The position numbers and the translations under genes are program-made. A DNA stretch of 54,558 bases. Origin: an uncultured bacterium (GTDB taxonomy: Bacteria; Patescibacteriota; Minisyncoccia; Phycocordibacterales; PALSA-1337). The notes below the pieces were generated by a model. That model worked only from the letters and a program-made list of their open reading frames with translations, searched no databases and was not told where the DNA came from. The stretch covers positions 1 to 54,558 of the forward strand of contig CAIQIZ010000018.1 of the NCBI GenBank assembly GCA_903872035.1, written 5' to 3'. Positions 10,357-26,732 of this stretch are shown piece by piece. The stretch's first letter is position 1; each line of letters opens with the position of its first letter.

Positions 10357-10367
10357 CTTCCTCAAAT

Positions 10368-10634
10368 CTATCTCCTAACGATCTTTTTTGACCAAGCAAC
10401 CAGAATCAAACCAGTAACTGATACAATAATTCCTAAATATCCCCTATAACCAATTTCTGGAATCATCCCAAACAACGAATCGTATGCGATACCGGCTATG
10501 AATATTTCCACATAATACGGGAAAGACCAACAACCGATGAGTCCCAGTGGCAAAGCGATGAACCACCAGCCTTGGATCACTGCGAATGCGATGACAACAT
10601 CGACGATTATGCGGATTATAAATATGTTTTTCAT
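10368..10634 (-). CDS. Small membrane protein in the MreD position
   Basis: About 3 hydrophobic segments; start MKNIF at 10634 overlaps the mreC stop (TGATG). Confidence 0.65.
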   Translation of the reverse strand: MKNIFIIRIIVDVVIAFAVIQGWWFIALPLGLIGCWSFPYYVEIFIAGIAYDSLFGMIPEIGYRGYLGIIVSVTGLILVAWSKKIVRR

Positions 10635-11428: not shown

Positions 11429-12492
11429 TATTTGCTTGACGGCAGATCATCCTCGCTCTGCAAAAGAACGCTCTTATACTTTTCTATATCTTCAAGAATG
11501 ATGCCAGCTCCGCGAGCGATGGCGGTGATAGGGTCTTCGGCAACCGTAACTGGAAGCTGTAGGACTTCTGAGAGAAGATCCCTCAAACCTTTTATGAGCG
11601 CTCCGCCACCTACCAGATATATGCCACGCTTCATGATATCGGCCATGATCTCTGGTGGTGTCATTTCCAAAACCTCTCGCGTTGTCGCCACCAAGACTTC
11701 TATAGACTGTCCCATGGCTTCTCGAATATCAGAGTCAGTGATGACCACTTCGCGAGGAAGACCAGTGATAAGATCTCGACCACGGATAACTGTCTCCAAA
11801 GGTTCGGCTGGCACTACTGCTCCAACAGCGATCTTCACCTGTTCAGCTGTCGTCTCGCCTATCAAAATCTTAAATTCGTTGCGAATGTATGAAATGATGT
11901 CCTGATTGAATTTATCTCCAGCGATCTTCAAGCTCTTTGAGCGGACGATCCCACCTAAAGAAATAATGGCAATGTCTGTAGTACCTCCACCGATATCGAT
12001 GACCATGCTTCCAACTGGGTCGAATATCGGCAAACGAATTCCTATAGCACCAGCGATGGGTTGTTCGACTATATAAACTTCCCGCGCCCCGGCATTTTTT
12101 GTGGCATCGCGCACAGCCCTAACCTCCACATTTGTCACACCAGACGGAACACCGACGACCACTCGTGGACCGAGAAATCTTTTCGGCATATATTCATTGG
12201 CACGCCGCATCAGATATGAGAGCATCTCTTCCGTCACTTCAAAATCGGAAATTACCCCGTCAACTAAAGGCCTTACAGCCGTTATATGCGTCGGCGTCCT
12301 GCCAAGCATATCCTTAGCAGCCGTGCCAACAGCTACGACTTGGCCTGTCTTTTGATTTACGGCGACAACCGATGGCTCAGTAACGACTATACCCTTACCT
12401 CGCACGTATACGAGGGTGTTGGCAGTACCAAGGTCTATGCCGATTTCATTAGAAAATCGATTGAAAAGTTTGTCTTTAGCTTCCTTGAACAT
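11428..12492 (-). CDS. mreB: Rod shape-determining protein MreB
   Basis: IGIDLGTANT, DIGGGTT and LVGGGALIKGL motifs. Confidence 0.97.
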   Translation of the reverse strand: MFKEAKDKLFNRFSNEIGIDLGTANTLVYVRGKGIVVTEPSVVAVNQKTGQVVAVGTAAKDMLGRTPTHITAVRPLVDGVISDFEVTEEMLSYLMRRANEYMPKRFLGPRVVVGVPSGVTNVEVRAVRDATKNAGAREVYIVEQPIAGAIGIRLPIFDPVGSMVIDIGGGTTDIAIISLGGIVRSKSLKIAGDKFNQDIISYIRNEFKILIGETTAEQVKIAVGAVVPAEPLETVIRGRDLITGLPREVVITDSDIREAMGQSIEVLVATTREVLEMTPPEIMADIMKRGIYLVGGGALIKGLRDLLSEVLQLPVTVAEDPITAIARGAGIILEDIEKYKSVLLQSEDDLPSSK

Positions 12493-12530
12493 TGGTTGTA
12501 CCTTAACATATGGGGGATTAGAGATTCAAG

Positions 12531-12602
12531 GACGCATAGAAAGAATATACCGTCTTGCCGCTGGCCCACAGCGCTCAAACCGATATATTCTTTCTATGCG
12601 TC
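12531..12602. repeat. Palindromic element, copy 2 (intergenic, smc-mreB)
   Basis: Perfect 19-bp arms (12531-12549 / 12584-12602) around core CGCTG-GCCCA-CAGCG (12559-12573). Confidence 0.9.
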
Positions 12603-12613
12603 AATCAAAATTT

Positions 12614-14995
12614 CTATTTCGCCACCGCCACTGCTTCTTCGAAGGCGATCGAAAGCAGCTTGGAGGCGCCGTCAGAGCCCATGGTCACGCCATACAAGAC
12701 GCCGGCACGAGACATGGTCTCGCGGTTATGGGTGATGAGAATGAGTTGTGAGCGCTTGGAAAGATTTTCGATCATATCGCCATACTTCTTAGAATTGGCT
12801 TCGTCCAATGCCGCATCTGTTTCATCGAGAATGATGAATGGCGGCGGATTGACTTGAGAGACAGCAAATAGAAGCGCTATTGAAGTAAGGGCACGTTCGC
12901 CGCCGGAAAGCATCATGAGCCCTTTGACTTTCTTACGCGGCAAACTGATGTTGACATCGAGACCTTCTGGACCTTCTTCGACATTAGCAAATCCGAACCC
13001 AGAGTCGCTGAAATCTTCTCCGTCGCGTCGCTGGCCCACAGCGCCCGCGCCAGAGAAGATCTCATCGCCTCCAGAAAGTGCTTCGCTTAATTCTTCCCCG
13101 TCGCTCTTTTTTCTTCGCTTTGCTTCTCGGACCACTGTAAGTTCCGCTTTTCCGCCCCCAAACATCAGGGTAAAGAATTTTTGGAATTCGGTGTTAATTT
13201 TCAATATTCCGCTCTTGAATTCAAAATCAATTCGCTGATCCAACTCGGCGATCAGTTTGATGAGTTCGGCTTTGGCTTTTTCCAGATCCTCGAGCTCTTT
13301 CATGAGGAAGCTGTCGCGCTCCTCCGTTTCTTTGTATTCCTTCAAGACCTCTGCCCCACCGCTACCACCGGCATCTTCTAGGCGAATCTTATTCTTCTCT
13401 ATTTTTCTTCTGCGTTCTTCTTGGGCTGAACGTGAAGCAACGGCGCCGTCAGATCGCACTCCGGTTTGCCGCTGGCCCACAGCGCTCAAACCAGAGTGCG
13501 ATTCTCCGGCGCCTGTGACTTCGTTGTACTCCACCGCCTCTCTTCCTACGATTATTCCAGCCTCCCCAAGGTCATGTTTGAAGTTCTCCTCTTCATGAGC
13601 AAGCATATTCATGGCCGTCGTCAGATTGGCAACCACGTTCCGGATCTCATTCTGCCTAGCAATGATCTTGAAGACATCCTTTTCCGCTTCGCGGTTGGTG
13701 TCCTTCTCCTTCTCTATGGTCGACTTCAATTCCTCATATTCGCGGACGTATTTCAATTCATTTTCCACAGCACTCTTAAGTTTACTCTCGAATTCCGATC
13801 GCTCGCGTGAAAGAACCTCGATTTCCTTTTCCGCTTCGCTAATCAATGCCGAATCACTCACCGCTTTGTGGCGAGCAATAAATCCTCGTAAAGCTCCGAC
13901 AACTTCACTGAAAAGCTTTCTGACATCTTCTATCGTCCGCATCCCTTCTATAGATTGCACTACTTCCTCGACATCTTTCAAACGGACCATCTTCAATTCT
14001 TCATTTTTTATCCTAGCCTCTTCCTTCATAATGGCACGCCTATCAGCATTGATCTCGCCTTCAAGCCTTCCTAACTCGCGAGTAATAGAATCCTTCTCGC
14101 TCCGGCATTGCTTCAATCTCTCTTCAAGGGAAATGACCTTGTCACTCTTTGTGTCTTTATTCTTGGAATCAGTCAGGATCTTCTTTGCCTGTTCCAATTG
14201 ATGATCAAGCTCGGCTAATTCCTTTTTGGGCCCAGCAATCTCGGCTGACAGGCGCTGCTTTTCAGTCTGAATGTAAAACTCCTCAATGGCAAAATATTCT
14301 TTGTATAAAAGAATCAATTCTTTTCGGAGCTCTTCGGCCTTCTCAACTTTTTCAACTTGTTTTTTCAGGAAGCGAATATGTGGCGCGATCTCACGTCGGA
14401 GCGATTCTACCTGCTTCATATTCTCGTCGGTCCGCTCTAATTTCCGCAAGCTTTCCAATTTCTTCCATTGATAGATCTTCAAACCGAGCGCATCTTCTAT
14501 CATTTCCCTTCTTTCGCGAATAGAAGCCGAAAGAATGCGATCAGCTTCTCCTTGTGAAATGATATGATGCCCAGTTGCGCCGATATGTGCGCTAGCCAAA
14601 AGCTCCACGATGTCTTTCAAGCGGACTTGGCTACCATTCAATAAGTACTCATTGGAATTGTCGCGATGTACGACGCGCTCCAGAGAGACCTCGTCGAAAT
14701 CGATCGACGGGAACAATTTTTGGGAATTATCAAAAACAACTTTAACGCTAGCTCGATTGGCTCTGCCAGCTGACGAGGCAGATTCGCCGCCGCCATTCCA
14801 GATCATATCTTCACCTCTTTTACCGCGTAATGATTTGATTGATTGTTCGCCGAGCACAAAACGAAATGCTTCAGCTGTGTTGGACTTTCCTGAGCCATTG
14901 GGTCCAACAACGCCGGTTATAGCGCTGGTGAATTGTAGGCTGGCTTTCTTGGCAAATGATTTGAAGCCGGATAATTCCAGAGATTTGAGATACAT
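12614..14995 (-). CDS. smc: Short SMC-family ATPase (about 790 aa, no recognisable hinge)
   Basis: MYLKSLELSGFKSF start (moved to 14995), GPNGSGKSN Walker A, LSGGE signature, ILDETDAALD Walker B. Confidence 0.85.
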   Translation of the reverse strand: MYLKSLELSGFKSFAKKASLQFTSAITGVVGPNGSGKSNTAEAFRFVLGEQSIKSLRGKRGEDMIWNGGGESASSAGRANRASVKVVFDNSQKLFPSIDFDEVSLERVVHRDNSNEYLLNGSQVRLKDIVELLASAHIGATGHHIISQGEADRILSASIRERREMIEDALGLKIYQWKKLESLRKLERTDENMKQVESLRREIAPHIRFLKKQVEKVEKAEELRKELILLYKEYFAIEEFYIQTEKQRLSAEIAGPKKELAELDHQLEQAKKILTDSKNKDTKSDKVISLEERLKQCRSEKDSITRELGRLEGEINADRRAIMKEEARIKNEELKMVRLKDVEEVVQSIEGMRTIEDVRKLFSEVVGALRGFIARHKAVSDSALISEAEKEIEVLSRERSEFESKLKSAVENELKYVREYEELKSTIEKEKDTNREAEKDVFKIIARQNEIRNVVANLTTAMNMLAHEEENFKHDLGEAGIIVGREAVEYNEVTGAGESHSGLSAVGQRQTGVRSDGAVASRSAQEERRRKIEKNKIRLEDAGGSGGAEVLKEYKETEERDSFLMKELEDLEKAKAELIKLIAELDQRIDFEFKSGILKINTEFQKFFTLMFGGGKAELTVVREAKRRKKSDGEELSEALSGGDEIFSGAGAVGQRRDGEDFSDSGFGFANVEEGPEGLDVNISLPRKKVKGLMMLSGGERALTSIALLFAVSQVNPPPFIILDETDAALDEANSKKYGDMIENLSKRSQLILITHNRETMSRAGVLYGVTMGSDGASKLLSIAFEEAVAVAK
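13013..13060. repeat. Palindromic element, copy 3 (in frame inside smc)
   Basis: ATCTTCTC/GAGAAGAT outer arms, core at 13029-13043; translated as ...GAVGQRRD... Confidence 0.8.
13442..13513. repeat. Palindromic element, copy 4 (in frame inside smc)
   Basis: Nested arms GGCGCCG/CGGCGCC, ATCGCACTC/GAGTGCGAT and GGTTTG/CAAACC around the core at 13470-13484; 27 nt identical to copy 2. Confidence 0.88.
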
Positions 14996-15046
14996 GTTGA
15001 GGGAGGTGTGGGCACCTATGGAGAGGTGGCACCTCCATATTGTAAC

Positions 15047-15079
15047 AAAAAGTGGTGCAGCCTGCTTAGACTGCACCAC
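15047..15079 (-). terminator. Intrinsic terminator after the zinc-finger ORFan
   Basis: GTGGTGCAG/CTGCACCAC stem with a minus-strand T5 run. Confidence 0.6.
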
Positions 15080-15130
15080 CCGCGTGACCAGCGCATGTCG
15101 GACCAAATCAATGTTCTGTCGGACTCACAA

Positions 15131-15457
15131 TCAAGCAGTCACCAAAGACAAGAGTTTAAGCCAGGCTTTTTCAACCTTGGCGGCTTTTGCATCTTCCGCC
15201 GCCTTGATCGCCTTCATCCTGTCCAATTTGAGCCCACGACATATAGCCATGTGCTTTGCGTGATTTGTGATCCGGATCCTCCTGTAGCAGTGCCCGCAGG
15301 TTTCCATGAGTCTGGCGACCTCCGTTTTGGTCAATTGTATCTCGAAAGCTTTCTCAGCTTCAGGACAATACCCATTCTCATAAGACTGCCAGGCTCGTTC
15401 GATACGAGCACGGGCACGCCTCGACAAGGCCATGTTTCTTCCATAAATTCTTTTCAT
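15131..15457 (-). CDS. Hypothetical protein with a C2HC zinc-finger-like motif
   Basis: CGHC-x11-H-x3-C; own -10 (TATAGT) and terminator. Confidence 0.6.
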   Translation of the reverse strand: MKRIYGRNMALSRRARARIERAWQSYENGYCPEAEKAFEIQLTKTEVARLMETCGHCYRRIRITNHAKHMAICRGLKLDRMKAIKAAEDAKAAKVEKAWLKLLSLVTA

Positions 15458-15490
15458 ATCAAAAAAATCAGGTTCAAACCTAACTATACA

Positions 15491-16189
15491 CTACCACTTC
15501 TTTATCTCCAACGCCTTCTCGGCAGCTTTTTGTTCAGCCTCTTGCTTGGAAGCGCCAGTGCCGGTGGCAACTTGCACGTCGCCAAGGAAAACGGCCAGAG
15601 TGAACTGCTTGTTGTGATCTGGTCCGATCTCCTTCAGAGTCTTGTAGCTCGGCGTCTGACCGACTTTCTCTTGGGCTCTTTCCTGGAATCGGCTCTTGGA
15701 GTCCAACCAGCTCTTATTTTTGACGATCTCTTCTATGTCGATGACATTCAGGATATGATCGGAAATGAATTTAGCCGCAGCATCGTAACCCTGATCGAGA
15801 TAAACAGCGCCTATGACAGCCTCAACGGCATTGGCCAAGATGATAGATCGCGCTCGGCCGGTATCCTTGGCTTCGCCGCGCGACATTAGCATGTATTCAT
15901 TAAGGCCCATATGTTCGGCGACTTTGGTCAAACTAACGGTATTCACGATAGCTGAACGGAAGGCCGTCAATTCCCCTTCGGCTTTCTTGGGATATTTATT
16001 AAAAAGGAAGCTGGTCACGATCAATTCCAGAACCGCGTCTCCGAGAAATTCCAAACGCTCATTATGCTCCAGCCCAGAACCTCGGTTCTCGTTCAAATAA
16101 GACCGGTGCGTGCAGGCGGTCGTGAGAAGATTGATGTCGGTAAAATTTACACCGATATGCTTTGCGAATGTTTCAATATTTGATTTCAT
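15491..16189 (-). CDS. rnc: Ribonuclease III
   Basis: HNERLEFLGDAVLEL signature and C-terminal dsRBD. Confidence 0.97.
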   Translation of the reverse strand: MKSNIETFAKHIGVNFTDINLLTTACTHRSYLNENRGSGLEHNERLEFLGDAVLELIVTSFLFNKYPKKAEGELTAFRSAIVNTVSLTKVAEHMGLNEYMLMSRGEAKDTGRARSIILANAVEAVIGAVYLDQGYDAAAKFISDHILNVIDIEEIVKNKSWLDSKSRFQERAQEKVGQTPSYKTLKEIGPDHNKQFTLAVFLGDVQVATGTGASKQEAEQKAAEKALEIKKW

Positions 16190-16195
16190 ATTTTC

Positions 16196-17098
16196 TTAGC
16201 TCTCTTGCGATAGCATCGTAACCGCCTTGGTAACGATCGGTAGTATATCATTGTAGAAATTGAGCTCCAAAATGTCAGCCAACTTGAACCACTTGGCGTC
16301 ATCGAGACCAGGCTTCTTGGCCAACTGAAGATCACCGAATGGTGCCTCGGCCAAATAGTAGTGAACCTGCTTCCTGATCTTCCCTATCTCCGGATCATTG
16401 GCGATGTATTCATTGGTGCCGAGATCTGATTTGATCGTGACTTCGAGGCCAATCTCTTCTTTGACTTTGTTTATCGTACCAGTGTTCGGTTCTATTCCCT
16501 CTGGGATCTTGCCTTTGGAAAGCGTCCAATGCCCGAATATATCATGCACAAAGGCAAGGTACATGACATCTTCATGCTTGGAATAGACGACTGCACCACC
16601 CAGATGCTGGATCGGCATCTCGTCATAAGGGACTTCGGCCGGCTTCTTCTTTTTGGCGGGAGCGGTATCTTTGCCAGGTTCTCCCAGCTCCTTGTAGACA
16701 GCGCCCAATACCCCATTAACAAAACGGCCGGAGGTTTCACCACCGAACGTCTTGGCTAACTCGATAGCTTCATTGATGGCTACTTTGGCCGGCACTTCGG
16801 ACCTGTCGGAGAAAAGCAGTTCGTAGAGCCCGATACGGAGGACATTTCGGTCGACCGGCGAGATCTTGTCGATCGGCCAGTCGGGTGCGGCTTTCTCTAT
16901 GATCTGATTGAGGTCCTCTTTTTTGGCCAAGATCCCTTTCATCAATTCTTCGATGAACGAAACATCGCTCATGCCTGGAGCAAATTCTTTGACATTGCGG
17001 GCGATGATATCTTTTACCGTCGCATCATTGCGGCCATGGCAATCCCATTCGAAGAGAGATTGCAAAACGACTGATCTAGAGAGGTGTCGGTTGGCCAT
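16196..17098 (-). CDS. nusB: NusB fused to a C-terminal Nudix-fold domain
   Basis: RHLSRSVVLQSLFEWD, DRNVLRIGLYEL and FVNGVLG, followed by WTLSKGK...KEEIGL. Confidence 0.88.
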   Translation of the reverse strand: MANRHLSRSVVLQSLFEWDCHGRNDATVKDIIARNVKEFAPGMSDVSFIEELMKGILAKKEDLNQIIEKAAPDWPIDKISPVDRNVLRIGLYELLFSDRSEVPAKVAINEAIELAKTFGGETSGRFVNGVLGAVYKELGEPGKDTAPAKKKKPAEVPYDEMPIQHLGGAVVYSKHEDVMYLAFVHDIFGHWTLSKGKIPEGIEPNTGTINKVKEEIGLEVTIKSDLGTNEYIANDPEIGKIRKQVHYYLAEAPFGDLQLAKKPGLDDAKWFKLADILELNFYNDILPIVTKAVTMLSQES

Positions 17099-17133
17099 TT
17101 TAGTTAAAGAACATGGTGTTAATAATGAACACA

Positions 17134-17228
17134 GAATCTTGATTCAAGATTCATGATTCAAGATCTAAGAACAATCACGATGATGTTATTCTCAAATCTC
17201 GATTCTTGAACCGTAAACCGTTACCCTA
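17134..17228. repeat. Degenerate 7-bp arrays (GATTCAA family) between rpmF and nusB
   Basis: GAATCTT GATTCAA GATTCAT GATTCAA GATCTAA ... GATTCTT GAACCGT AAACCGT. Confidence 0.7.
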
Positions 17229-17231
17229 TGT

Positions 17232-17450
17232 TTACCTTGCAGCCGCTTTGGCCTTGGCCGCTTTTCGTGTAGCTTTGGCAGCCAAATCCAGAACTTTTCG
17301 TCCATTGTATGAACCACAGTTCATGCAAATGCGATGGCTCTGATGCAGAGCTCCGCAAGTGACGCACTTGGAAAAACGCATCGCTGTCAAAGCGTGATGC
17401 GATCTCCTGTTGTCCCGATGGGACCTTGTTCCGCGCATTCGATTTACCAT
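17232..17450 (-). CDS. rpmF: 50S ribosomal protein L32
   Basis: 72 aa, RRSHHAL with CxxC...CxxC; true start at 17450. Confidence 0.92.
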   Translation of the reverse strand: MVNRMRGTRSHRDNRRSHHALTAMRFSKCVTCGALHQSHRICMNCGSYNGRKVLDLAAKATRKAAKAKAAAR

Positions 17451-17528
17451 GTCGCTAGTATTGCACAATCTTTTGAGTTGTGCAATATCTGATTTTCTGT
17501 TATAAATTACACGCTTGCGTAACTGCTT

Positions 17529-17602
17529 GCGCCCATAGCTCAGTCTGGTAGAGCACTCGCCTCTTAAGCGATTGGTCGTTGGTTCGAATCCAACTGGGCG
17601 CA
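17529..17602 (+). tRNA. tRNA-Lys(CTT)
   Basis: GCGCCCATAGCTCAGTCTGGTAGAGCA...CTCTTAA...GGTTCGAATCCAACTGGGCGCA cloverleaf. Confidence 0.95.
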
Positions 17603-17688
17603 CCCGAACGGTTCTAAAAAATAAATAAAAACGCCACACAAGACGTATCCTGTGTGGTTCGATAAATAAGGCTGAAGATCTTGGCCTA

Positions 17689-18144
17689 CTAGGCAAGGCC
17701 GAGTCTCGATCTGATCGTCATCGATGGAAGGCTCGGCGGCTTCGGAGTCGGCAGTGCACCGCTGTGTCGCGCGTTATAGCTGGCGAGCGGATTTTGCTTC
17801 TCGATATATTGAGCGTCGCCAAGGCATTTGACTTCCATCGTTTCCGCCTCCGTGCTCAAACGGGCGGTGATGGACAATCCGATCGGATCGAACGCGACCA
17901 ATTCGAAGGCCGTGCTGAGCGAACTGCAAATGCTTTTTTGGATCCCGCGATTCCTGGTCAATTCCGCATAGGCCATTGCCAAGCGTTTACATATCGGCGT
18001 CGAGCCCTGCTCACTGGAAGTAAGAACTCCAACATTCGCAATCGACAATTTGAAGCCAGGGCCGATGTTTTGTGTGAGTGGCGGAAGAACCGCCGGCAGA
18101 GTTGATGTTTGAGGTTCAGTTAGTCTAGTTAATCTCTTTGCCAT
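17689..18144 (-). CDS. Hypothetical protein (ORFan between two tRNAs)
   Basis: 151 aa with an A-rich leader and upstream TTGACA-N18-TAATGT. Confidence 0.6.
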   Translation of the reverse strand: MAKRLTRLTEPQTSTLPAVLPPLTQNIGPGFKLSIANVGVLTSSEQGSTPICKRLAMAYAELTRNRGIQKSICSSLSTAFELVAFDPIGLSITARLSTEAETMEVKCLGDAQYIEKQNPLASYNARHSGALPTPKPPSLPSMTIRSRLGLA

Positions 18145-18263
18145 AATTTATTTAGTTGTTTAACCGTCCGCCCAATACATTACATCAAGACTGAGATAGG
18201 TGTCAACTCTCCATATTTGCCCACTTGTGTATATCCTTACGAGACCGTACAATTTGCCTGAGC

Positions 18264-18345
18264 GCCGGGGTGGCGAAATTGGTAGACGCGCTAGCCTTAG
18301 GAGCTAGTGGAGCAATCTATGGAGGTTCGAGTCCTCTCCCCGGCA
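18264..18345 (+). tRNA. tRNA-Leu(TAG)
   Basis: GCCGGGG/CCCCGGC acceptor stem, CT-TAG-GA loop, long variable arm, GGTTCGAGTCC T-arm. Confidence 0.95.
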
Positions 18346-18680
18346 CAATGATCCACGAGAAAGCCTGAATGGCTTTCGAGTGGAGTATCATTGTGACTGG
18401 GGAAGGACGAGAAAGCCGGAACGAGCGAGTCCAGCAGGACGAGCCGTGAGGCGGGGTCGCGACCGAGCGAGACTGGTCTCGCGAGAGTCGTGACCGAGTC
18501 CTCTCCCCGGCACAATGATCCACGAGAAAGCCTGAATGGCTTTCGAGTGGAGCATCACTGTGACTGGGGAAGGACGAGAAAGCCGGAACGAGCGAGTCCA
18601 GTAGGACGAGCCGTGAGGCGGGGTCGCGACCGAGTCCTCTCCCCGGCACAATGATCCATGAGGACGCCTAAATGGCGTCC
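18329..18680 (+). repeat. Tandem hairpin repeats beginning with the tRNA-Leu 3' end
   Basis: GAGTCCTCTCCCCGGCACAATGATCCA at 18329, 18496 and 18632; units of 167 and 136 bp, each folding back on itself. Confidence 0.92.
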
Positions 18681-18693
18681 GAATGCATAAGGA

Positions 18694-18722
18694 TTGACAA
18701 TCTTAGCAATTCGTGCTAGCCT
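18694..18722 (+). promoter_or_regulatory. Sigma70-type promoter
   Basis: TTGACA-N17-TAGCCT with extended TG. Confidence 0.65.
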
Positions 18723-18894
18723 TATTTCTGGAACCAGATACTCGACTATTGTGTCTACGCCAAAAGCGTTTACGCGACAGAAGAGCATTTGAAATAGCCA
18801 GAGCTTCGCTCTGCGCACGGTAATCACACCAGGCATCGATCGATGTCGTTCCAAACAACACGGAAAACAAACGGAAAAATGAAAGAATAAGAGA

Positions 18895-19770
18895 ATGAAC
18901 ACACAAGAAGCAGTAGTTGGAACAACAGTAGTCCCCGAGCCCGTTGCAACCGCAACAGCTCCGGACCAAAGCACGGCCACCGCAGTGGCCACCTCGACTT
19001 CCACCTCAACCCAGCCGGAAAAGCCCAGGGTGGAGGTCGTGGAAGAGTTCATCCGCCCCAAAAACATGACGGATGAGGCGCACAACTGGATGGTGAACCC
19101 GAACAGTATCGAGCTCGCCGGCGATGCACCCTACCGTTTCCTCGGATGGGATATTGTCGCGAGACTGAAGCTGATCAAGAAGTCTCCCCTCGCAATCGAG
19201 GATGTTAAATGTCTGGTAATGCCAGACGGGGACCAGGTGAAGTGCGACAGCACCAAGGGAATCTTCCAGCCGGTCAAATACTGGCCGCATGTCTCCCCGG
19301 AAACGGAGGCTGCCCTGAAGTCGGGCGCGACGATCGGGCAGATAACGCTGCCTGAGTACAATGGCGCATTCTTCGTTGATCACAACAAGCAGGAAGTCTT
19401 CGCTGTCTCCGGATGCAAGTTCGGCAAGTTCGGTAAGGACTTCTGCTACGGCAGTTGGCTTTACAAAGCTGCCGTAAAGCGGGCGCTTTCGCGCGTCATC
19501 GCACGTGGCGAGTCCTGGAACGAAACGCCAGAACGTGATCGGGTTCTTTGGGGCTTGGATTATCAAACGCAGTTGGATTTCCTCTCCCAAAGGAAGCAGG
19601 AGCGCCTAGTCCGCAAGGAACGGGAAGCGGCGCTCGACGAGCGCTTCGGCCTCAAGCCTCGTGGTGACCGCCGGAATGGTGGCCGCGACAGCGAACACGA
19701 GAACGGGCGTTACCGTGGCCAGCATAACAGCCGCTCCCAAGAGAAACGCAAGGTCTTCGCTGACCTATAA
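18895..19770 (+). CDS. Hypothetical protein (Thr/Ala-rich N-terminus, Arg-rich C-terminus)
   Basis: 291-aa ORF with its own promoter and terminator. Confidence 0.75.
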   Translation: MNTQEAVVGTTVVPEPVATATAPDQSTATAVATSTSTSTQPEKPRVEVVEEFIRPKNMTDEAHNWMVNPNSIELAGDAPYRFLGWDIVARLKLIKKSPLAIEDVKCLVMPDGDQVKCDSTKGIFQPVKYWPHVSPETEAALKSGATIGQITLPEYNGAFFVDHNKQEVFAVSGCKFGKFGKDFCYGSWLYKAAVKRALSRVIARGESWNETPERDRVLWGLDYQTQLDFLSQRKQERLVRKEREAALDERFGLKPRGDRRNGGRDSEHENGRYRGQHNSRSQEKRKVFADL

Positions 19771-19805
19771 GCAAAGCAGCGAAACGGCTTTAAGCCGAAT
19801 CAATC

Positions 19806-19855
19806 ACCCCATCAGCAATGATGGGGTTGACTTTTTATACAGAATGATATATAAT
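19806..19855 (+). terminator. Terminator overlapping the -35 of the next promoter
   Basis: ACCCCATC/GATGGGGT stem plus T run; TTGACT(19827)-N17-TATAAT(19850). Confidence 0.75.
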
Positions 19856-19941
19856 ACGTGATAGTCCGTTTTACGAATGAAATATAGTTGAAAACAAGGG
19901 CCGCAAGCGATTGCGGCCACAACCAAAGAAAGAGCTAGAAA

Positions 19942-21666
19942 ATGAATGCATTAGTGTTGAAAGGTTTGAAACAGTTAGGCGATTGGTCCGTAGGATGGGA
20001 TCCTACGCCTGAGGCAACGGGCTACGGGCGTCGATATTTCGACTCCCAAGGCAACGACTTCGGGCCGGCCAAGTTCGGCCCGGATACGAATCTAAACATG
20101 GCGGCCCTCAAGGGAAACCCAGGCGAGTATTTCATGCTCGTCGTCCCGATGAAGGACGCTGAGCAGGGCAAACCGTCAGCTGCGAAGCTGACGGTAACAC
20201 CGGAGAAAATCGCAACCTTCGAAATCTTGAGCGAGGCCGAAGCGGCCGAACTCAAGATGGCGGATGAAGCTCCCGCGAGCCCGCCGCCAACGAATCAACC
20301 GGCACCGACCGTGCCTCCCGCGACTCAGCCTCCGACGACGTCACCCGCTAATACGGGAACGCCGACAGTGGTAAATCAACCGCAACCGACCAATCAGGGT
20401 CCCGCGGCTCCTACTGCGACACAGCCTCCGACGACGCAGCCCAATGTGGGAACTACGGCGCCGGCACCTACGAATCCGCCTCAGGCACAAACTCCTCCGG
20501 CACCAGCCACTCCCCCATTAGGAAGTGACTTGAATGCTTTCATGCGAAAGTTGCATGACATGCACCTGACGATGGGCGACGGGCTCGGCGTAGTGGCAAC
20601 TGTTGCCAATAACGTCGGGGCACAGGTCGTTACTGGCCTGAACACCTTGAACACGAGCATGACCACCGGTCATGCCCAAATTCTCGACGCGATCAGGCAA
20701 ATCAGGCCGTCGGCTCCTACTCAGGGAACACCGGCACCGACCGTGCCTCCCGCGACTCAGCCTCCGACCGCGCCGCCAATCAATCAGCCTCCGACCAATC
20801 AGGGACAGCCTACGGGAAATCAACCGCCGGCCGACCGGAAGGGTTGGGTGTACTGGATTGTAATTGGTGTACTAGCGGCGTTAGCACTGGCAGCACTTGC
20901 ATTTTGGGGGTATCCATACCTCTCGAAGCACCTGCCGCATACGGCACCAGATATTACGGCCAACACAACAAATGGTTCGACTGGGAATGCTCTTCCCATC
21001 CCGAGTGGGTTCAGTCCGGTAATATCGAACAACAGTAATTGTAATATTCAGGTGGTTAGCTGCTCAGGCGGCACACCACCGAATATTACGATCACGCCGG
21101 TATTGCCGATGAATCCGCCACCTTCAACGGTCGTGACGACTCCGGCACCGAACGTGTACGTGAACATAACGAACACGTATATGTACCCGACACTTCCGAC
21201 GATGCAACCGCAAGCATCGGAAGCGCCTGCAGCACAACAAGCACCTACAGCACAAGCACCGACGCCGCCAGCGCCAACACAAGCACAAACCACTTCGAAC
21301 TGGGCACCGCAGTCATCTGCAGAGCAAGTTCCGTGGCTTGAGAACCTTCCAGCATCTCAGGGCGAACTGGTAGTCAATGGACCTCGCCCTGAAGCCAATG
21401 GCGACTGGTGCAGCGGCTACTATATCGGATCAAGCGGAAGGTGGTACTGGACGGACACTCAAGGTGTCTTCCATCCCTTCCGAACCAATCATCGCCGCGA
21501 AGAGCTCGGCTACGGACAGTGCCGACAGCCTGAGGTACGGAGAGTGGAAACACGGACGAAGCAGGTAAATCTGATCGTCTGGAAAAGCAGGACTGAGGTG
21601 AGGAGAGAATCTCCGCCTCAACCTTGTCCTCCTCCCCGCTGCGCACCCTACGGCTACAGACCGTAA
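19942..21666 (+). CDS. Pro/Thr/Gln-rich single-pass membrane protein
   Basis: 574 aa; PT-rich repeats with a 39-bp exact duplicate (20298-20336 = 20730-20768); central TM WVYWIVIGVLAALALAALAFW. Confidence 0.8.
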   Translation: MNALVLKGLKQLGDWSVGWDPTPEATGYGRRYFDSQGNDFGPAKFGPDTNLNMAALKGNPGEYFMLVVPMKDAEQGKPSAAKLTVTPEKIATFEILSEAEAAELKMADEAPASPPPTNQPAPTVPPATQPPTTSPANTGTPTVVNQPQPTNQGPAAPTATQPPTTQPNVGTTAPAPTNPPQAQTPPAPATPPLGSDLNAFMRKLHDMHLTMGDGLGVVATVANNVGAQVVTGLNTLNTSMTTGHAQILDAIRQIRPSAPTQGTPAPTVPPATQPPTAPPINQPPTNQGQPTGNQPPADRKGWVYWIVIGVLAALALAALAFWGYPYLSKHLPHTAPDITANTTNGSTGNALPIPSGFSPVISNNSNCNIQVVSCSGGTPPNITITPVLPMNPPPSTVVTTPAPNVYVNITNTYMYPTLPTMQPQASEAPAAQQAPTAQAPTPPAPTQAQTTSNWAPQSSAEQVPWLENLPASQGELVVNGPRPEANGDWCSGYYIGSSGRWYWTDTQGVFHPFRTNHRREELGYGQCRQPEVRRVETRTKQVNLIVWKSRTEVRRESPPQPCPPPRCAPYGYRP

Positions 21667-21686
21667 TGAACATTGGACAGTTTCAC

Positions 21687-21722
21687 AGGTTCCCAGCAAC
21701 GCGTTGTTGCTGGGGCCTTTTC
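21687..21722 (+). terminator. Intrinsic terminator
   Basis: CCCAGCAAC/GTTGCTGGG stem plus T5. Confidence 0.75.
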
Positions 21723-21781
21723 TTATACATAAGTGCTGCAAATGCTAGAAAATTGGCCGTATAGTCACATTTGACAACCTA

Positions 21782-21810
21782 TTGACTTTTGTTCCCTAAT
21801 GTGCTAAACT
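21782..21810 (+). promoter_or_regulatory. Sigma70-type promoter
   Basis: TTGACT-N17-TAAACT with extended TG. Confidence 0.65.
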
Positions 21811-21920
21811 TTACTCAGAACGTGATTCTTCGTTAAGAGTGCACGTTGTCAATTTCATAATAAGAAACAATAAAACCAGGGCTTCCCTACCGGGCGGTCC
21901 TACAAAATGAAGGAAACAGC

Positions 21921-23072
21921 ATGAGAGCAAGTGATCAGATAAAGTCGGCCATTACGGATATTCTAAGAATCCCCGTTTGGCTGGTAACCAAAATTTGGAT
22001 GTTACCAGGGTCGTTGCTAAGCCAAGTTGGCCTAGCACAAAACCGGATTACCGGAACGATCGGGTTCACCTATACTGTCATGATCGCTGGAGGGACCTTC
22101 CTCCTCGTCACTGGCAATATGGAAACCGGGTTCGCAGGTGTCATCCTAGCATCCTTAGCCGTCATCGGCATCACCAAAGGGCTAAAAACCTTTGACCCTC
22201 CCACGGAGGGAATCCTCATGATCTGGAATCGGATCCTGACGGACAAAAAAGGAAACACATCGACCGTTAAAGGTACGACCCTCTTGGCCAACTTCTGGCC
22301 ATTTCTGATCAATGCGAGACCGGTGGACATGACTCGCAAAGAATGGAAATTCGAAATGAAGATTCAATCAGAAAGAGTCGTGCTGCCGAGCGGTCAGGTA
22401 CTACCGTCCATTCCAGTCAAGGGTGTCATCGAGATGACAGCTTTCCCGCTTCGGACAAAAATGATGGATTACATCGCATCCGGCGGACTGGATAACATAT
22501 ACAAGGATATGGGCAAGATCCCATATCAAGTCGTTCAGGCTGCTGTCACAGAACATAAGTTGTCCTACATGGACATGGCTCAATACAGCACAAAACTGGC
22601 AGAGCTTGTCGACGATCACCTGAACGGAACAGCGACGTCCGATGGATGCTTCAAGGAGAAGCGATACGGAGTAGAAACTAGTAATGTTAGAGCCGACTTC
22701 CCTATTCCACCCGAGATCGAGAAGACTATGATCGAATCCGCCAGCGTCATATACGAAAATGATGCTCGGAAGGAAGAGTATAAGGGAGACATCGAGGCTA
22801 TCACCCAGTTCAAAGCACTGGGGCTAGACCCTGAGAAAGCGTCTAACGCTTACTCTGAAGCTCGCCTTATACGAGACGGTCTCGTACATCGCGTACAAGT
22901 CGAAGGTAAGGGTACCTCCATCGGAGGCGCCATTATCTTACGGGACATGCAAGTCTTCCCTGGTGGAAACCAGGGTGGACAAAACCAAGGTCGAGGCGGT
23001 CGACGAAATCGGCGCCAAAACCGGCAAGGTCAAGGTCAGCAAGATCAAGATCAAAGCCAAAACCAAACGTAA
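21921..23072 (+). CDS. Membrane protein with a probable divergent SPFH/band-7 domain
   Basis: N-terminal TMs, then a G-x-LM-x-W-x-R...P-F-L-I...VDM pattern, a helical region and a Gln/Arg/Gly-rich tail. Confidence 0.55.
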   Translation: MRASDQIKSAITDILRIPVWLVTKIWMLPGSLLSQVGLAQNRITGTIGFTYTVMIAGGTFLLVTGNMETGFAGVILASLAVIGITKGLKTFDPPTEGILMIWNRILTDKKGNTSTVKGTTLLANFWPFLINARPVDMTRKEWKFEMKIQSERVVLPSGQVLPSIPVKGVIEMTAFPLRTKMMDYIASGGLDNIYKDMGKIPYQVVQAAVTEHKLSYMDMAQYSTKLAELVDDHLNGTATSDGCFKEKRYGVETSNVRADFPIPPEIEKTMIESASVIYENDARKEEYKGDIEAITQFKALGLDPEKASNAYSEARLIRDGLVHRVQVEGKGTSIGGAIILRDMQVFPGGNQGGQNQGRGGRRNRRQNRQGQGQQDQDQSQNQT

Positions 23073-23102
23073 CAACAGAAAACAATAGAAAGAAATACCC
23101 TT

Positions 23103-23609
23103 ATGGCAGAAAAGACAGAGAAGTCAGAGAAGTCGACGGAATCAAAAGAATACTCGCCGTTCAAGATAATCATGGTTCTAGTGCTTGCCTTTGTGGCGAT
23201 CCACATCTACCGCAACCGGGCCAGCTTACAAGCAGGTCCGGAGGAGCACGTAGGGAGCCAAGCGCAACAGCAACCACAACCCCTACCAACGTTCGAACAT
23301 CCGGCGTACATCCGGATAACGACAGAGGGTTGGGACCAGGCAATACCTGTTCCCAATCTCGGAAGACGGGTAGAGGCTCGTATAGTAACGCGAGGCATCT
23401 GGTGGCAAGTGCGTCCAGACATGGACGACAGTAGGGCCTCAAAGCCTCTCCCGCCGATCCCAGATGGTCCGACTCATATCGTATACCAAGCGCCACCTGG
23501 AGGAGGCTCACAAGTCCAGCAATGGAGGGTCTGGCCAACGCAGGGAGCACCGACCGAGGGTCAGGTCATGTACTGGTACACAAACAACGTGACGATAGTG
23601 TCACGGTAG
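23103..23609 (+). CDS. Single-pass membrane protein, hypothetical
   Basis: TM near the N-terminus and a Trp-rich beta-like C-terminal domain; co-oriented with the SPFH-like gene. Confidence 0.7.
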   Translation: MAEKTEKSEKSTESKEYSPFKIIMVLVLAFVAIHIYRNRASLQAGPEEHVGSQAQQQPQPLPTFEHPAYIRITTEGWDQAIPVPNLGRRVEARIVTRGIWWQVRPDMDDSRASKPLPPIPDGPTHIVYQAPPGGGSQVQQWRVWPTQGAPTEGQVMYWYTNNVTIVSR

Positions 23610-23626
23610 CACAAACAGAACGCAAC

Positions 23627-23666
23627 AGGCCGCAGGGATCTCAAATCCCCGCGGCCTTTATTTTTT
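23627..23666 (+). terminator. Intrinsic terminator
   Basis: AGGCCGC-A-GGGAT-CTCAA-ATCCC-CGCGGCCT followed by T runs. Confidence 0.65.
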
Positions 23667-23698
23667 ACCCGAAACTGAGCGATAATTCACTTATCCTA

Positions 23699-23998
23699 CT
23701 ATTTGAAAGCACCACCTACAGTACCGGAGATCAGATATATTATCCCCCAAGCCGATACCATGATGAACATACCGATCGAACCCCAAAGGATACTTAACTT
23801 GCCTGAAGATCTAGCCTCTTCATCCGAACCATTCAAGACCATCCTTAGCACTCCGTAGACGAATACCAGAAGGGCTACACCGAACATGAGCTCGACTATA
23901 GGATAGACTATTCCTTTAAGGACCGGATTGATAGCGTTTCCAAAAGCAGTCATATCCACTGCCGCGTGCGCGGTCGGTATAAGTTCGAACACTGACAT
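23699..23998 (-). CDS. VirB2/TrbC-like pilin
   Basis: Two TMs; SILWGSIGMFIMVSAWGII motif. Confidence 0.8.
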   Translation of the reverse strand: MSVFELIPTAHAAVDMTAFGNAINPVLKGIVYPIVELMFGVALLVFVYGVLRMVLNGSDEEARSSGKLSILWGSIGMFIMVSAWGIIYLISGTVGGAFK

Positions 23999-24010
23999 GT
24001 GATTGCGGTC

Positions 24011-24412
24011 CTAGTTAACTGTTGGAGGAGTACCAGGGATGTTGTTGCCAGGCATGCCACCAGTCGTCGTATTGTTTCCAAAGTTAGGCAAAGGCTGCTG
24101 TGTAGCCGTTGTGCTGAAAGTATTGGTGAGGATATTGACCAAGCCCCAGATGGAGACGATAACGAACAAACCGACGATACCCCAAAGGATATTCATACCG
24201 GCCTTCGATCTTCCCTCTTCACCGGAACCCTTGATGACGTAGATCACCGTATTCCAGACGATGAATATGACAGCCAAAGCGACCAAGAGATAGACGACGA
24301 CGTTGCCGATGCTAGACAGTTTGGTCGACAGCGAATTGACATCTACGACTTTAGTTTGGGCGAATGCAACGGACGGAGCGACTAATGCTATAAAAGCGAT
24401 GATTTTTTTCAT
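24011..24412 (-). CDS. VirB2/TrbC-like pilin
   Basis: Signal peptide (AFA-Q), two TMs, ILWGIVGLFVIVSIWGLVNIL. Confidence 0.85.
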   Translation of the reverse strand: MKKIIAFIALVAPSVAFAQTKVVDVNSLSTKLSSIGNVVVYLLVALAVIFIVWNTVIYVIKGSGEEGRSKAGMNILWGIVGLFVIVSIWGLVNILTNTFSTTATQQPLPNFGNNTTTGGMPGNNIPGTPPTVN

Positions 24413-24503
24413 ATTTATGATTAATATTAATATTCTATTATAACCAAATCATTATACCTCATCGATAAACAAGGACAAAACCGATACTTGTGGATATGTT
24501 TGG

Positions 24504-24860
24504 CTAGTTATGGTTGATAAAATTGGCATTAGGGAAACCGTTAGTATTGGTTGGCGTTGTGTAATCCGTGGCAAAGGTGTTGAGTAGGATGTTTACCAAG
24601 CCCCAAATGGACACGATTATGGCCAAACCGACGATACCCCACATTATCCTCATACCAGCTTCCCTTCTACCTTCACCAGAGTCTCCCATCATGATGTATT
24701 GCACCGTCGCCCAAACGATATAGACGACTGCCAATGCTACCAACAAATAAACGACCACGTTGCCTATGCTGGCGATCCGATCGACTAAGTCGTTAGCATT
24801 ATCGATCTGCGACAATGGTCCGGTTTGGGCCTGTGCTATGGAATATAGGATATTGGTCAT
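24504..24860 (-). CDS. VirB2/TrbC-like pilin
   Basis: IMWGIVGLAIIVSIWGLVNIL; close paralog of 24011-24412. Confidence 0.85.
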   Translation of the reverse strand: MTNILYSIAQAQTGPLSQIDNANDLVDRIASIGNVVVYLLVALAVVYIVWATVQYIMMGDSGEGRREAGMRIMWGIVGLAIIVSIWGLVNILLNTFATDYTTPTNTNGFPNANFINHN

Positions 24861-24883
24861 ATTAATGATTGATTATCTAAATA

Positions 24884-25243
24884 TTATTGCGGAAAAATGT
24901 TGGAGAAGCTCGTCCACGTACCGGCCGAATTCTGGCCTAAATCAAAAGTAGACATAAGGATATTGACGATCCCCCATAAGGAAAAGATCACAAAGAATCC
25001 GATCACGCTCCACATGACGTACTGGCCTCCTTCGCTACGTCCCTTCTCGCTCGGTCGCATGAAATATTGGATGACATACCAGACGAACATGACGACAGCC
25101 AGACCCATCAAGAGATCCAGAGCGTCGTTAATATATATAGCGGCTGTTCCGACCAGGTCATGCAAAGTCTTGGAGCTCGCGGCAAAAGCGACGAATGGCA
25201 TGAAGGTCGAGCTCGCGACAAGTAGCTGGCTGATTTTTTTCAT
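24884..25243 (-). CDS. VirB2/TrbC-like pilin
   Basis: Signal peptide; VMWSVIGFFVIFSLWGIVNIL. Confidence 0.85.
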   Translation of the reverse strand: MKKISQLLVASSTFMPFVAFAASSKTLHDLVGTAAIYINDALDLLMGLAVVMFVWYVIQYFMRPSEKGRSEGGQYVMWSVIGFFVIFSLWGIVNILMSTFDLGQNSAGTWTSFSNIFPQ

Positions 25244-25310
25244 GTTTGATGATTTGTTAATGAATATTTTGCGTAAATTCCTAATTGCCTAAATCCTAAC
25301 CTCCTAGTCC

Positions 25311-26123
25311 CTAATTTCCTCCCGAATTAGCGCTCCTAGCCTGTTGAATGACATTTTGATTGACCGCGCCGGTAGATGCCAAAGTATTGATCACTACATC
25401 TACAATGACTCTGGCTCCGATCACGATAGCGATACCGACTACCAACCACAGAAACCTCTCATGGAGTTCTTTGATCTTAGTCGAATTACCCATGGCGGTG
25501 ATGTACTGGAAACCGGTGAATATAATCATGAGGACAGCGAATAAGATGACGATGTAGGCAAAAATCTGCACGAAATTCTGCACTAATTGTCCGATAGAGT
25601 TTATGCCGCCTCCATTTAGCGGATTTGTCAGTCTATTGACGCCCCCATTGCTAGAATTTGATCCGTTCCCTGTTGAACCGCTTGCAGGAGAGCCGTTCCC
25701 AGTAGATCCGGAGGCAGGAGAGCCATTACCGGTACTTCCGGTGTTACTTCCCCACCAGGTACTGTTGGAATTAGCATTGGAATTGGCGCCGCTTGCCCCA
25801 GATGTACCGCTATTTCCGGCATTGCTGGGGGCATTACCTGAACTCGCAGCTGTTCCCGCCGAAACATTGCTACTAGTGAGACATGATTGATTATCGCTAG
25901 TAACTCCGTAAGGACAGCAGTCACCTGCAGCATCTACAGTCCCATTACAAAAACCTCCAAATGTATATCCGGAATTCCCCGAGTTGTTTTGATCCGGAGG
26001 AGCATCCAAACTTTGAGCATATACAGTCACATTTGTCTTGTATAAGGCCGCGATCATTAATATGAGCACGGACACCGATACTATCAACTGCATTCTATAT
26101 CTTTGTTGTATATTTGCATTCAT
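25311..26123 (-). CDS. Pilin-like protein with a Gly/Ser/Asn-rich repeat extension
   Basis: Cys-containing N-domain, GSTGNGSPAS repeats, LTNPL followed by a two-TM pilin domain. Confidence 0.8.
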   Translation of the reverse strand: MNANIQQRYRMQLIVSVSVLILMIAALYKTNVTVYAQSLDAPPDQNNSGNSGYTFGGFCNGTVDAAGDCCPYGVTSDNQSCLTSSNVSAGTAASSGNAPSNAGNSGTSGASGANSNANSNSTWWGSNTGSTGNGSPASGSTGNGSPASGSTGNGSNSSNGGVNRLTNPLNGGGINSIGQLVQNFVQIFAYIVILFAVLMIIFTGFQYITAMGNSTKIKELHERFLWLVVGIAIVIGARVIVDVVINTLASTGAVNQNVIQQARSANSGGN

Positions 26124-26133
26124 GATCTTATTA

Positions 26134-26667: not shown

Positions 26668-26687
26668 TTAGATGTTCGCATCTCGTG

Positions 26688-26729: not shown

Positions 26730-26732
26730 TTA

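Follow-up and report, generated by a model that had tools for sequence, protein, structure and literature searches.

The 178-bp tandem repeats of Escherichia coli tyrT have been on record for over four decades, and the rtT RNA has been known since 1991. To our knowledge the repeats have no accepted function and are regarded as an enterobacterial oddity, and we know of RtT at one E. coli locus only. A passage of PMC3318445 that cites Bösl and Kersten 1991 describes rtT RNA as the product of one repeat unit of the tyrT operon, and in a study that sequenced the mobilome under stress, coverage of the rtT region was raised (bioRxiv 10.1101/2024.07.17.603846). Here we describe a 54,558-nt stretch of chromosomal DNA (the window) from an uncultured Patescibacteria (candidate phyla radiation [CPR]) bacterium of lake water, in which an array of short tandem units directly follows a tRNA-Leu(TAG) gene. 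The array is a real, nonrandom RtT-like feature in a distant phylum, and its relatives involve several tRNAs.

In the K-12 tyrT-tyrV region every 178-nt repeat, as well as the tyrT-tyrV spacer, contains GGGGAAGGATGAGAAGCTTCGA, a 22-nt inverted copy (86%) of the tRNA-Tyr T-arm plus four acceptor bases that lies 64 to 67 nt past the tRNA end. After this arm comes a GC-rich tail with a GCAG-loop hairpin and then an 18- to 19-nt copy of the tRNA end. A further pairing partner of the arm, the T-stem 5′ strand, exists in the real tRNA only. The Rfam family RtT (RF00391) scores the four E. coli units at 133 to 137 bits, and its consensus structure is closed by a stem between arm and copy (GGGGAAGG.A with U.CCUUCCCC). 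Within one unit, a RefSeq record marks a "small RNA RttR" as well as the tpr peptide. The preliminary description of the window had likened the array to tyrT for the tandem repeats containing a tRNA 3′ end; the inverted arm that the E. coli repeats also hold makes the analogy stronger than had been noted.

The same description had listed three copies of the tRNA-Leu 3′ end with trailer nucleotides, accompanied by hairpins and an inverted copy, and all of these features are present (Table 1). GAGTCCTCTCCCCGGCACAATGATCC is found exactly at 18329, 18496, and 18632, with matches in 0 of 100 shuffles. The full exact repeat is 28 nt long (CGAGTCCTCTCCCCGGCACAATGATCCA, CGAGTCC...GATCCA) and occurs three times (18328-18355, 18495-18522, and 18631-18658), where none is expected by chance; it runs from C56 of the T-loop to the discriminator and on through 10 trailer nucleotides. 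Tandem Repeats Finder gave a period of 167, 1.8 copies, and 97% matches. The order within a unit is a hairpin (hp), an antisense arm, a GC-rich tail with hairpins Ha and Hb, and the next copy of the tRNA end. The core of the hairpin is GAAAGCC-TGAAT-GGCTTTC at 18359 and 18526 and GGACGCC-TAAAT-GGCGTCC at 18662. The inverted copy, ATCATTGTGACTGGGGAAGGAC, is 82% complementary to each of the three sense copies. Unit 1 (167 nt) and unit 2 (136 nt) are 98% identical, with 31 extra nucleotides in unit 1 at 18464-18494 that are bordered by GTCG(C/T)GAC-CGAG repeats. The final base of Hb in the first tail is the first C of the second sense copy. The arms of the last hairpin, hp′, differ from those of hp1 by two compensatory double changes, and no antisense arm or tail comes after it; the sequence continues into the native trailer (CATAAGG..TTGACA). 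All six reading frames across the units are broken or of low complexity, with no conserved peptide evident. ARAGORN found no tRNA inside the units, and Rfam matches in 18200-18900 at E values up to 10 were limited to the tRNA-Leu gene itself, the sole tRNA match, and two chance matches.

The antisense arm tracks the tRNA gene next to it, which passes a check that the preliminary description had proposed, and the GC-rich tail recurs behind another tRNA gene and, with different arms, in a further lineage. Three further tRNA loci with the hairpin or the tail were found among Logan contigs aligned to the region. Locus 2 (an 8312-nt contig from metagenome run X5; depth 72.5 versus 65 to 79 in the window flanks) reads ...GGAGTTCGAATCTCTTAGGGC, a hairpin with two mismatches to the window hp, and GTGAGCCATATGAGATGAGAAC..., a last segment that matches the reverse complement of its own tRNA end at 17 of 22 positions. 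Locus 3 reads ...GAGGTTCGATTCCTCGATCGCCCG, hairpin, and GTGCGTGGAGGTAGAGGAAGAGAAAGACGG; its depth is about 4, and it therefore probably belongs to another, rarer organism. Locus 4 (a 4782-nt contig from X5; depth 89) reads ...GGAGCATCATTGCGCGATGGGTGATGAT, tail, and ATCTCACCCCGTCCGCAATTGAT..., with a tail that aligns to 18409-18497 with 12 mismatches and precedes the 3′ end of yet another tRNA. The four tRNA 3′ ends come from the same lake samples, and three of the four loci are at the sequencing depth of this genome. At the three additional loci the segment that follows ATCATTG is complementary, imperfectly and in reverse, to the 3′ end of the tRNA at that locus. When the reverse complement of each tRNA end was scored against each arm in a four-by-four matrix, the diagonal values (10, 12, 9, and 7, versus 4 to 7 off the diagonal) topped every row and column. 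All arms lie between conserved ATCATTG(T/C)G and GAGAA(A/C)G.CGG.

Homologous units extend to genomes with just ~84% NusB identity. A scan of GTDB genomes, with the junction of the tail and the tRNA-Leu copy as the query, found six loci in Patescibacteria metagenome-assembled genomes (MAGs), and five MAGs have single units at tRNA-Leu(TAG). Four of these (L023, L026, L027, and L028) have one complete unit each, 3′ of the gene; the unit in L025 is truncated by the contig end, and the tRNA would lie upstream. The tails of the MAG units retain GAAAGCCGGA, GCGAGGCGGGGTCGCG, and GTGAC. Their hairpins vary: GAAGGCC-TAAAT-GGCCTTC in L028, a different sequence in L026, and nearly none in L027. The arm is matched at 20 of 21 positions in L027, and in L026 an inserted hairpin splits the acceptor complement from the T-stem complement. 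Low-depth contigs from other lakes (runs X7-X9 and X20) have the tail and the copy, with differing native trailers straight after ...GGCAC. In L029, an IMG/VR contig with cellular-type neighbor genes, two units stand in tandem, and their tails share the motifs given above. Its arm, GGCGTAGGGATTTGAA, and its terminal copy, CAAATCCCTCCCC, both differ from the tRNA-Leu arm and copy; arm and copy have therefore changed together. The hairpin had no match in the genome contig collection and only one chance match, inside a gene, in the metagenome contig collection (L005). Viral contigs contained no match to the hairpin, the tail start, or the tail/tRNA-Leu junction. A relaxed tail pattern gave three chance matches in GC-rich genes (L030-L032).

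The window units share the layout of RtT. In both cases tandem, same-strand units stand directly 3′ of a tRNA gene, and each unit closes with 18 to 19 nt that repeat the tRNA 3′ end from within the T-loop onward. Both have an imperfect antisense of the T-stem and acceptor (86% in E. coli, 82% in the window), a GC-rich, CGAGCG-rich tail with a tetraloop hairpin, and a closing stem between arm and copy (in the Rfam consensus and in the minimum-free-energy folds of the window, L026, L027, and L028). The arm has GAGAA in place of TCGAA in E. coli, the window, L025, L028, and loci 2 and 3. A 15-mer, GGGGAAGGA(C/T)GAGAA, is common to the E. coli and window units at a near-equal offset; most of this match arises because the T-stem and acceptor sequences of the two tRNAs are alike. 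The two systems differ in host phylum, in tRNA (tRNA-Tyr versus a tRNA-Leu that has no encoded CCA), and in unit size (178 nt versus 136 and 167 nt). The counterpart of the E. coli spacer is, in the window, a defined hairpin whose loop is T(A/G)AAT, and the E. coli arm spans the whole T-arm plus 4 nt of the acceptor, whereas the window arm spans the whole acceptor and beyond. Furthermore, the window family stands behind several different tRNAs.

The units are strongly structured. The 88 nt at 18326-18413 form a single hairpin of -54.9 kcal/mol (z = -9.9), and folding of the entire array stretch had a z score of -12.5 against shuffles. In the minimum-free-energy folds of the window, L026, L027, and L028 units, hp is accompanied by a stem of arm and copy (P1) around Ha and Hb. 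In an alignment of seven unit sequences from five lineages that covered the two tail hairpins, 91.7% of cells were paired, versus 81% in shuffles and 35 to 46% when the partners were slid. Compensatory changes were found in 13 of 32 tail pairs, versus 5.3 in shuffles, and none of 500 shuffles reached 13. Reads from other lakes add more such sets: GCAT/ATGC or GCAC/GTGC instead of GTCC/GGAC, and A18421G together with T18447C. There are 12 G·U pairs versus 3 A·C pairs, an excess that points to the tRNA strand. In 18347-18649 (303 nt), the plus strand contains 17 CGAG (expectation, 1.1 to 2.4) and a single CTCG, its complement. The layout CGAG-stem-loop-stem-CGAG is present in hp, Ha, and Hb and nowhere else in the window, and L028 retains the CGAG modules although the stems between them have changed. 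CGAG pairs would make symmetric tandem G·A loops, and the CGAG:CGAG geometry accounts for the GAGAA of the arm opposite the CGAG of the T-loop. The last two A residues of the arm pair with T54 and T55, partners that exist in the real tRNA only and not in the downstream copies. It appears that selection acts on a single strand, most likely an RNA.

The compensatory changes, the excess of G·U over A·C, and the strand-specific CGAG are the reasons for placing a structured RNA first among the explanations. On balance we favor an RtT-like structured RNA that is cotranscribed with the tRNA and probably excised by tRNA-end processing, encoded in an array that is resized by unequal recombination. No promoter-like or terminator-like site was found between the tRNA and 19806; therefore, read-through from the tRNA-Leu promoter would be expected to give a transcript of tRNA, unit, unit, and hp′. 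The arm would pair with the next copy of the tRNA 3′ end to form P1, a mimic of the stacked acceptor/T-stem helix that ends in the discriminator. P1 would enclose Ha and Hb, with hp placed 5′ of it, and the CGAG-stem-loop-stem-CGAG module with its tandem G·A loop is a probable protein-binding unit. Because each unit ends like a tRNA, the enzymes that cleave after the discriminator of a CCA-less tRNA should cut every copy. Such cleavage would free the tRNA together with discrete unit RNAs, 136 or 167 nt long, by analogy with the E. coli rtT/RttR RNA. Alternatively, the arm may pair with the tRNA's own 3′ half (first sense copy, hp, arm) and rival the cloverleaf until the tRNA is released. Unequal recombination between direct repeats of 28 to 140 nt could expand and contract the array, and the family would have spread to several tRNA genes with arm and 3′ copy fitted to each. 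In tRNA-like processing modules, such as mascRNA and tRNA punctuation, there is a parallel for an acceptor/T-arm mimic that would recruit tRNA-end processing, but the window units do not have the full cloverleaf.

Several points weigh against the structured RNA. RNA runs contain just 4 to 6% of the words of the region. An RNA function leaves unexplained the 100% identity of the 3′ copy to the tRNA and the colonization of new tRNA loci. The copy is invariant in the tRNA-Leu set, and thus the P1 pairs cannot covary there. RNAalifold favors other partners for the copy, namely GCCGG and GAGG in the tail; these alternative helices never vary and are therefore uninformative either way. Arm-less variants exist at low depth (X20 and X9). 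RF00391 had no match at its gathering score of 45 bits in the window and none in 18200-18900 at E values up to 10, so that the kinship with RtT is one of layout and not of a sequence test. We regard the window units as RtT-like by design and not as members of RF00391.

The RNAalifold pairings (GCCGG:CCGGC and GAGG:CCTC) also raised the possibility that the tail is a degenerate tRNA-Leu 5′ half. This reading was unsupported. The pairs never vary, and at loci 2 and 3 the tail opens with GGCGG and GACGG, sequences that do not track the tRNAs there.

Comparison of the locus with relatives indicates that the units are an addition in some lineages, because the tRNA-Leu trailers of some relatives are plain and without copies. 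The tRNA-Leu(TAG) trailers are plain in L015 and L019-L021, and six relatives located via NusB had no units at tRNA-Lys or tRNA-Leu. Among 17 tRNA genes compared, only the window tRNA-Leu has direct (20/22) and inverted copies downstream (background, 11 to 14/22). An ENA sequence from a strain variant (L003) is 100% identical to the window over 10196-18346, with no DNA similarity beyond. Past the tRNA it has pilin, solute-binding, and methyltransferase homologs with 50 to 74% amino acid identity to window 23711-28467, and 18347-23700 is absent. Both the L003-type and the window-type forms are present in run X5; the difference may reflect either recombination at the tRNA or a chimeric contig. 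L003 and the corresponding X5 reads are without units, but all of the sequence 3′ of the tRNA has been replaced. The contig of L007, a different species, starts within tRNA-Leu and reads ...GGCAC directly followed by AATTCGAGAGC...CATATAAGG...TTGACT-17-TATAAT; it has no units, P1, or 291-aa gene, and the three genes at 19942-23609 are present. No clean pair of empty and filled sites was found.

The 5.3-kb block of higher GC content downstream of the array was considered as an island brought by the units and was rejected, as 19942-23609 is syntenic, adjoining the pilin cluster, in L006 and L007. Nor is the block cargo of the units: L007 has it after tRNA-Leu without any unit and from it misses only the 291-aa gene.

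Other arrangements 3′ of tRNA genes were observed in these genomes. L013 (99-2197) and L014, which have 91% NusB identity, carry a ~2-kb element directly 3′ of tRNA-Lys (GCAC-AATTTCGCAG ... CTGCGAAATT-GTGCC) that has 206-nt inverted repeats (90% identical) and encodes a large serine recombinase of 616 aa (Resolvase, Recombinase, and Zn_ribbon_recom domains). The element is missing from L012 and L008, which are 99.9 to 100% identical up to the tRNA end. In the Patescibacteria MAG L024, a 930-nt insert lies 3′ of tRNA-Leu(TAG) and contains one open reading frame (ORF; 269 aa; 568-1377, minus strand) that has no Pfam match; a lone copy of the tRNA 3′ end stands after GTGAC at 518-538, with a panD-like gene next. 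In L026 (2431-2540), the ~100 nt after tRNA-Lys consist of GC-rich hairpins, CTCCCCGGC-TAATC-GCCGGGGAG and GCCTGCAC...GTGCAGGC, in which a copy of the tRNA end is not obvious. These hairpins could be another type of tRNA-linked structured trailer.

The main alternative, to which we give clearly less credence, is that the units represent a miniature DNA element of the integrative type, or its fused ends, that a site-specific recombinase encoded elsewhere inserts at the T-loop region of tRNA genes. Such an element would supply a replacement 3′ end and displace the native one downstream, and tandem units would reflect repeated integration. The sense copy, hairpin, and antisense arm would then be a folded single-strand recombination site comparable to CTXphi attP and integron attC. 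The direct repeat from the T-loop to just beyond the tRNA end suits this possibility, and integrases that target tRNA genes reportedly have this block as their usual region of identity. Folded-strand integration might be expected to produce the order copy, loop, inverted copy, body, copy. Strain variation in the clade breaks at tRNA 3′ ends (L003 at 18346; L013 versus L012), and the large serine recombinase element of L013 and the L024 insert between tRNA-Leu and a lone 3′ copy provide further support, as does a distribution that is patchy among relatives with a copy number that differs between populations. Known integrative elements at tRNA genes and their remnants (attL/attR duplications and cis-mobilizable elements that lack an integrase) likewise have a direct repeat from the T-loop to the tRNA end, keep the tRNA intact, form tandem units, and leave strains that differ exactly at the tRNA end. 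CTXphi attP and integron attC are also imperfect inverted pairs around a variable loop, keep structure over sequence, and occur in arrays.

The integrative alternative encounters several difficulties. Unlike integrative elements at tRNA genes, the window units have no recombinase, are only 136 to 167 bp long, and have an interior that is conserved via base pairing and not sequence; a duplex circle of 136 bp would be implausibly small. Unlike attP and attC, they have no integron integrase or Xer/dif context, and their target varies by locus. RNA is a better fit than DNA to the tandem G·A loops, the bias toward G·U, and the strand specificity of CGAG, and arms that fit at least four different tRNAs need a separate explanation. 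None of the viral contigs had the hairpin, or the tail joined to the tRNA-Leu 3′ copy. In a search for recombinases with Pfam among the larger ORFs across the window, and with PHROGs and PADLOC among the ORFs flanking the array, the only candidate was a Y1_Tnp-like gene 12 kb from the array that has its own, unrelated hairpins. At its ends (AATGATCC... and ...GTCGTGAC) the unit lacks the inverted repeats that would be sought in a miniature inverted-repeat transposable element, and the duplication is 19 to 28 nt. The preliminary description had proposed a tRNA-targeted element able to make an inverted copy of its target. Support for such a mobile element was not obtained: there is no nearby recombinase, there are no terminal inverted repeats, and no clean empty/filled pair was found. 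An RNA module and a miniature integrative element are compatible and not exclusive.

Around the Y1_Tnp gene stand three copies of ATAGGTCTGACC: a pair forms a hairpin just upstream (5453-5486), and the third lies just downstream (6197-6208). This layout resembles that of a transposase associated with repetitive extragenic palindromic (REP) sequences (REP-associated tyrosine transposase [RAYT] type). REP/REPIN systems with a RAYT (Y1) are similar to the array in their small palindromic repeats, and a Y1_Tnp-like gene with hairpins is in the window. However, the ATAGGTCTGACC hairpins are unrelated to the units, and REPs do not copy adjoining tRNA ends.

An idea that extends the structured RNA, and that we consider rather doubtful, is that RtT-like modules are a cross-phylum class in which a sense copy is combined with a replaceable antisense "guide" and the host tRNA gene is the source of both. 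Such modules would spread via a re-templating RNA or single-strand DNA intermediate, and the released RNA would act on the cognate tRNA by antisense pairing with the T-arm and the acceptor 3′ strand.

It is unlikely that the array is a cis-acting switch of tRNA folding or processing, in which pairing of the first sense copy, hp, and arm would set the amount of mature tRNA-Leu or the transcript end and the later copies would be decoys that free the tRNA. The preliminary description had suggested that the trailer could compete with cloverleaf folding, and the stability of the 88-nt hairpin makes such rivalry thermodynamically plausible. Some arm partners are in the real tRNA only (T54/T55 here; the T-stem 5′ strand in E. 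coli), and Rfam lists RtT in the class "Cis-reg." However, the cloverleaf should fold first because it is transcribed before the arm, and the conserved, covarying tail and the exact 3′ copy would remain unexplained.

It is more unlikely still that slippage or unequal crossing-over merely duplicated the tRNA trailer in tandem, as a neutral event without function. The 98% identity of units 1 and 2 and the repeats that flank the 31-nt indel would be natural products of such a process, but slippage accounts for copy number and not for the unit itself. Homologous units with compensatory changes are found at other tRNA genes and in genomes with ~84% NusB identity; the covariation and the multilocus distribution contradict neutral duplication.

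The array is not an assembly artifact, to the extent that short reads can show. It is included in 12.9 kb that is 100% identical between the window and two JGI contigs from different samples. Unitigs of 195 to 197 nt in runs X1, X3, and X4 cover 18328-18524 with zero mismatches, and a 164-nt unitig in X6 covers 18495-18658, also with zero mismatches. Although the repeats are shorter than a read pair and the contigs of relatives L006 and L007 break near the locus, the occurrence of the same junctions in two JGI assemblies and in the unitigs of several independent runs makes an artifact extremely improbable. X5 and X6 have only the 136-nt type of unit; thus the 31-nt segment, and probably copy number, vary between populations. 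X5 also holds a strain in which TGAAAAAATAAAAATCGCAC..., an ordinary terminator, is immediately 3′ of the tRNA.

The runs that contain the array region are lake and freshwater metagenomes, and the nearest named relatives of the window NusB are MAGs designated "Patescibacteria group" or "Candidatus Paceibacterota." Pfam scans identified smc, rnc, a nusB-NUDIX fusion, rpmF, mreBC, gyrA, ftsAZ, and a run of PF18895 pilin genes in the window. The tRNA-Leu gene does not encode CCA; its discriminator A is at 18345, and the +1 C is at 18346. On the strand opposite tRNA-Lys, and overlapping it, is a 154-aa ORF (17232-17696, minus strand) with an L32 domain at residues 88 to 136; the true rpmF is probably just the last 60 to 70 codons or so. 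A 123-aa protein of the PF05635 family ("23S rRNA intervening sequence protein") is encoded at 40621-40992 (minus strand), with no rRNA gene around it in the window. Among the products of the three genes at 19942-23609 are a membrane protein rich in Pro, Thr, and Gln and a protein whose tail is rich in Gly, Gln, and Arg; these genes had no family matches. The 291-aa protein has 53 remote relatives with 25 to 40% identity and the common motifs E-A..W, DG....C, FQPV.Y, YGGAF, and SPL, and had no match in Pfam, PHROGs, PADLOC, or PDB. The locus does not fit a type III toxin-antitoxin RNA array, in which short tandem RNA repeats would precede an endoribonuclease toxin gene: the units are 136 to 167 nt long, and the downstream protein is this one, with no PADLOC, Pfam, or PDB match.

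Table 1. Features of the tRNA-Leu array and of its surroundings in the window
Feature	Position	Strand	Remarks
Sense copy S1	18328..18346	+	T-loop 3′ part, T-stem 3′ strand, acceptor 3′ strand, discriminator, and +1 of the tRNA (CGAGTCCTCTCCCCGGCAC)
Hairpin hp1	18347..18392	+	AATGAT..CGAG-AAAGCC-TGAAT-GGCTTT-CGAG..ATCATT; CGAG/CGAG would form a tandem G·A internal loop
Antisense arm 1	18393..18413	+	GTGACTGGGGAAGGACGAGAA; imperfect reverse complement of the tRNA 3′ half, ending in GAGAA opposite the T-loop
Tail 1	18414..18494	+	AGCCGGA motif; Ha 18421-18447; motif GAGGCGGGG; Hb 18455-18495
Sense copy S2	18495..18513	+	Direct repeat of the tRNA 3′ end
Hairpin hp2	18514..18559	+	Same as hp1 except for two T-to-C differences (18553 and 18558)
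Antisense arm 2	18560..18580	+	Identical to arm 1
Tail 2	18581..18630	+	Ha 18588-18614, loop AGTA; Hb shortened by the 31-nt deletion
Sense copy S3	18631..18649	+	
Hairpin hp′	18650..18696	+	Diverged solo hairpin (GGACGCC-TAAAT-GGCGTCC)
tRNA-Leu(TAG)	18264-18346	+	ARAGORN; Rfam gives 18264-18345, 59 bits
tRNA-Lys(CTT)	17528-17605	+	ARAGORN
291-aa protein, Arg/Gly-rich C terminus	18895-19770	+	Gene absent from relative L007
Three same-strand genes (574, 383, and 168 aa)	19942-23609	+	GC 0.51-0.60 versus ~0.46 in flanks
PF18895/TrbC-type pilin-like proteins, six small consecutive genes	23699-26667	-	Strongly diverged between strains
Y1_Tnp (IS200-like) protein, 200 aa	5578-6180	+	PF01797, E = 2e-7

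The RtT layout in Patescibacteria, at several tRNAs and with compensatory changes in the tail, has the look of a recurrent design under selection and not of an accident. If the cross-phylum class is real, then E. coli rtT would be the single member that was noticed in the 1980s. The natural variants now provide an opportunity to sort out which parts of the unit matter, and E. coli rttR becomes a tractable model for a module of uncultured bacteria.

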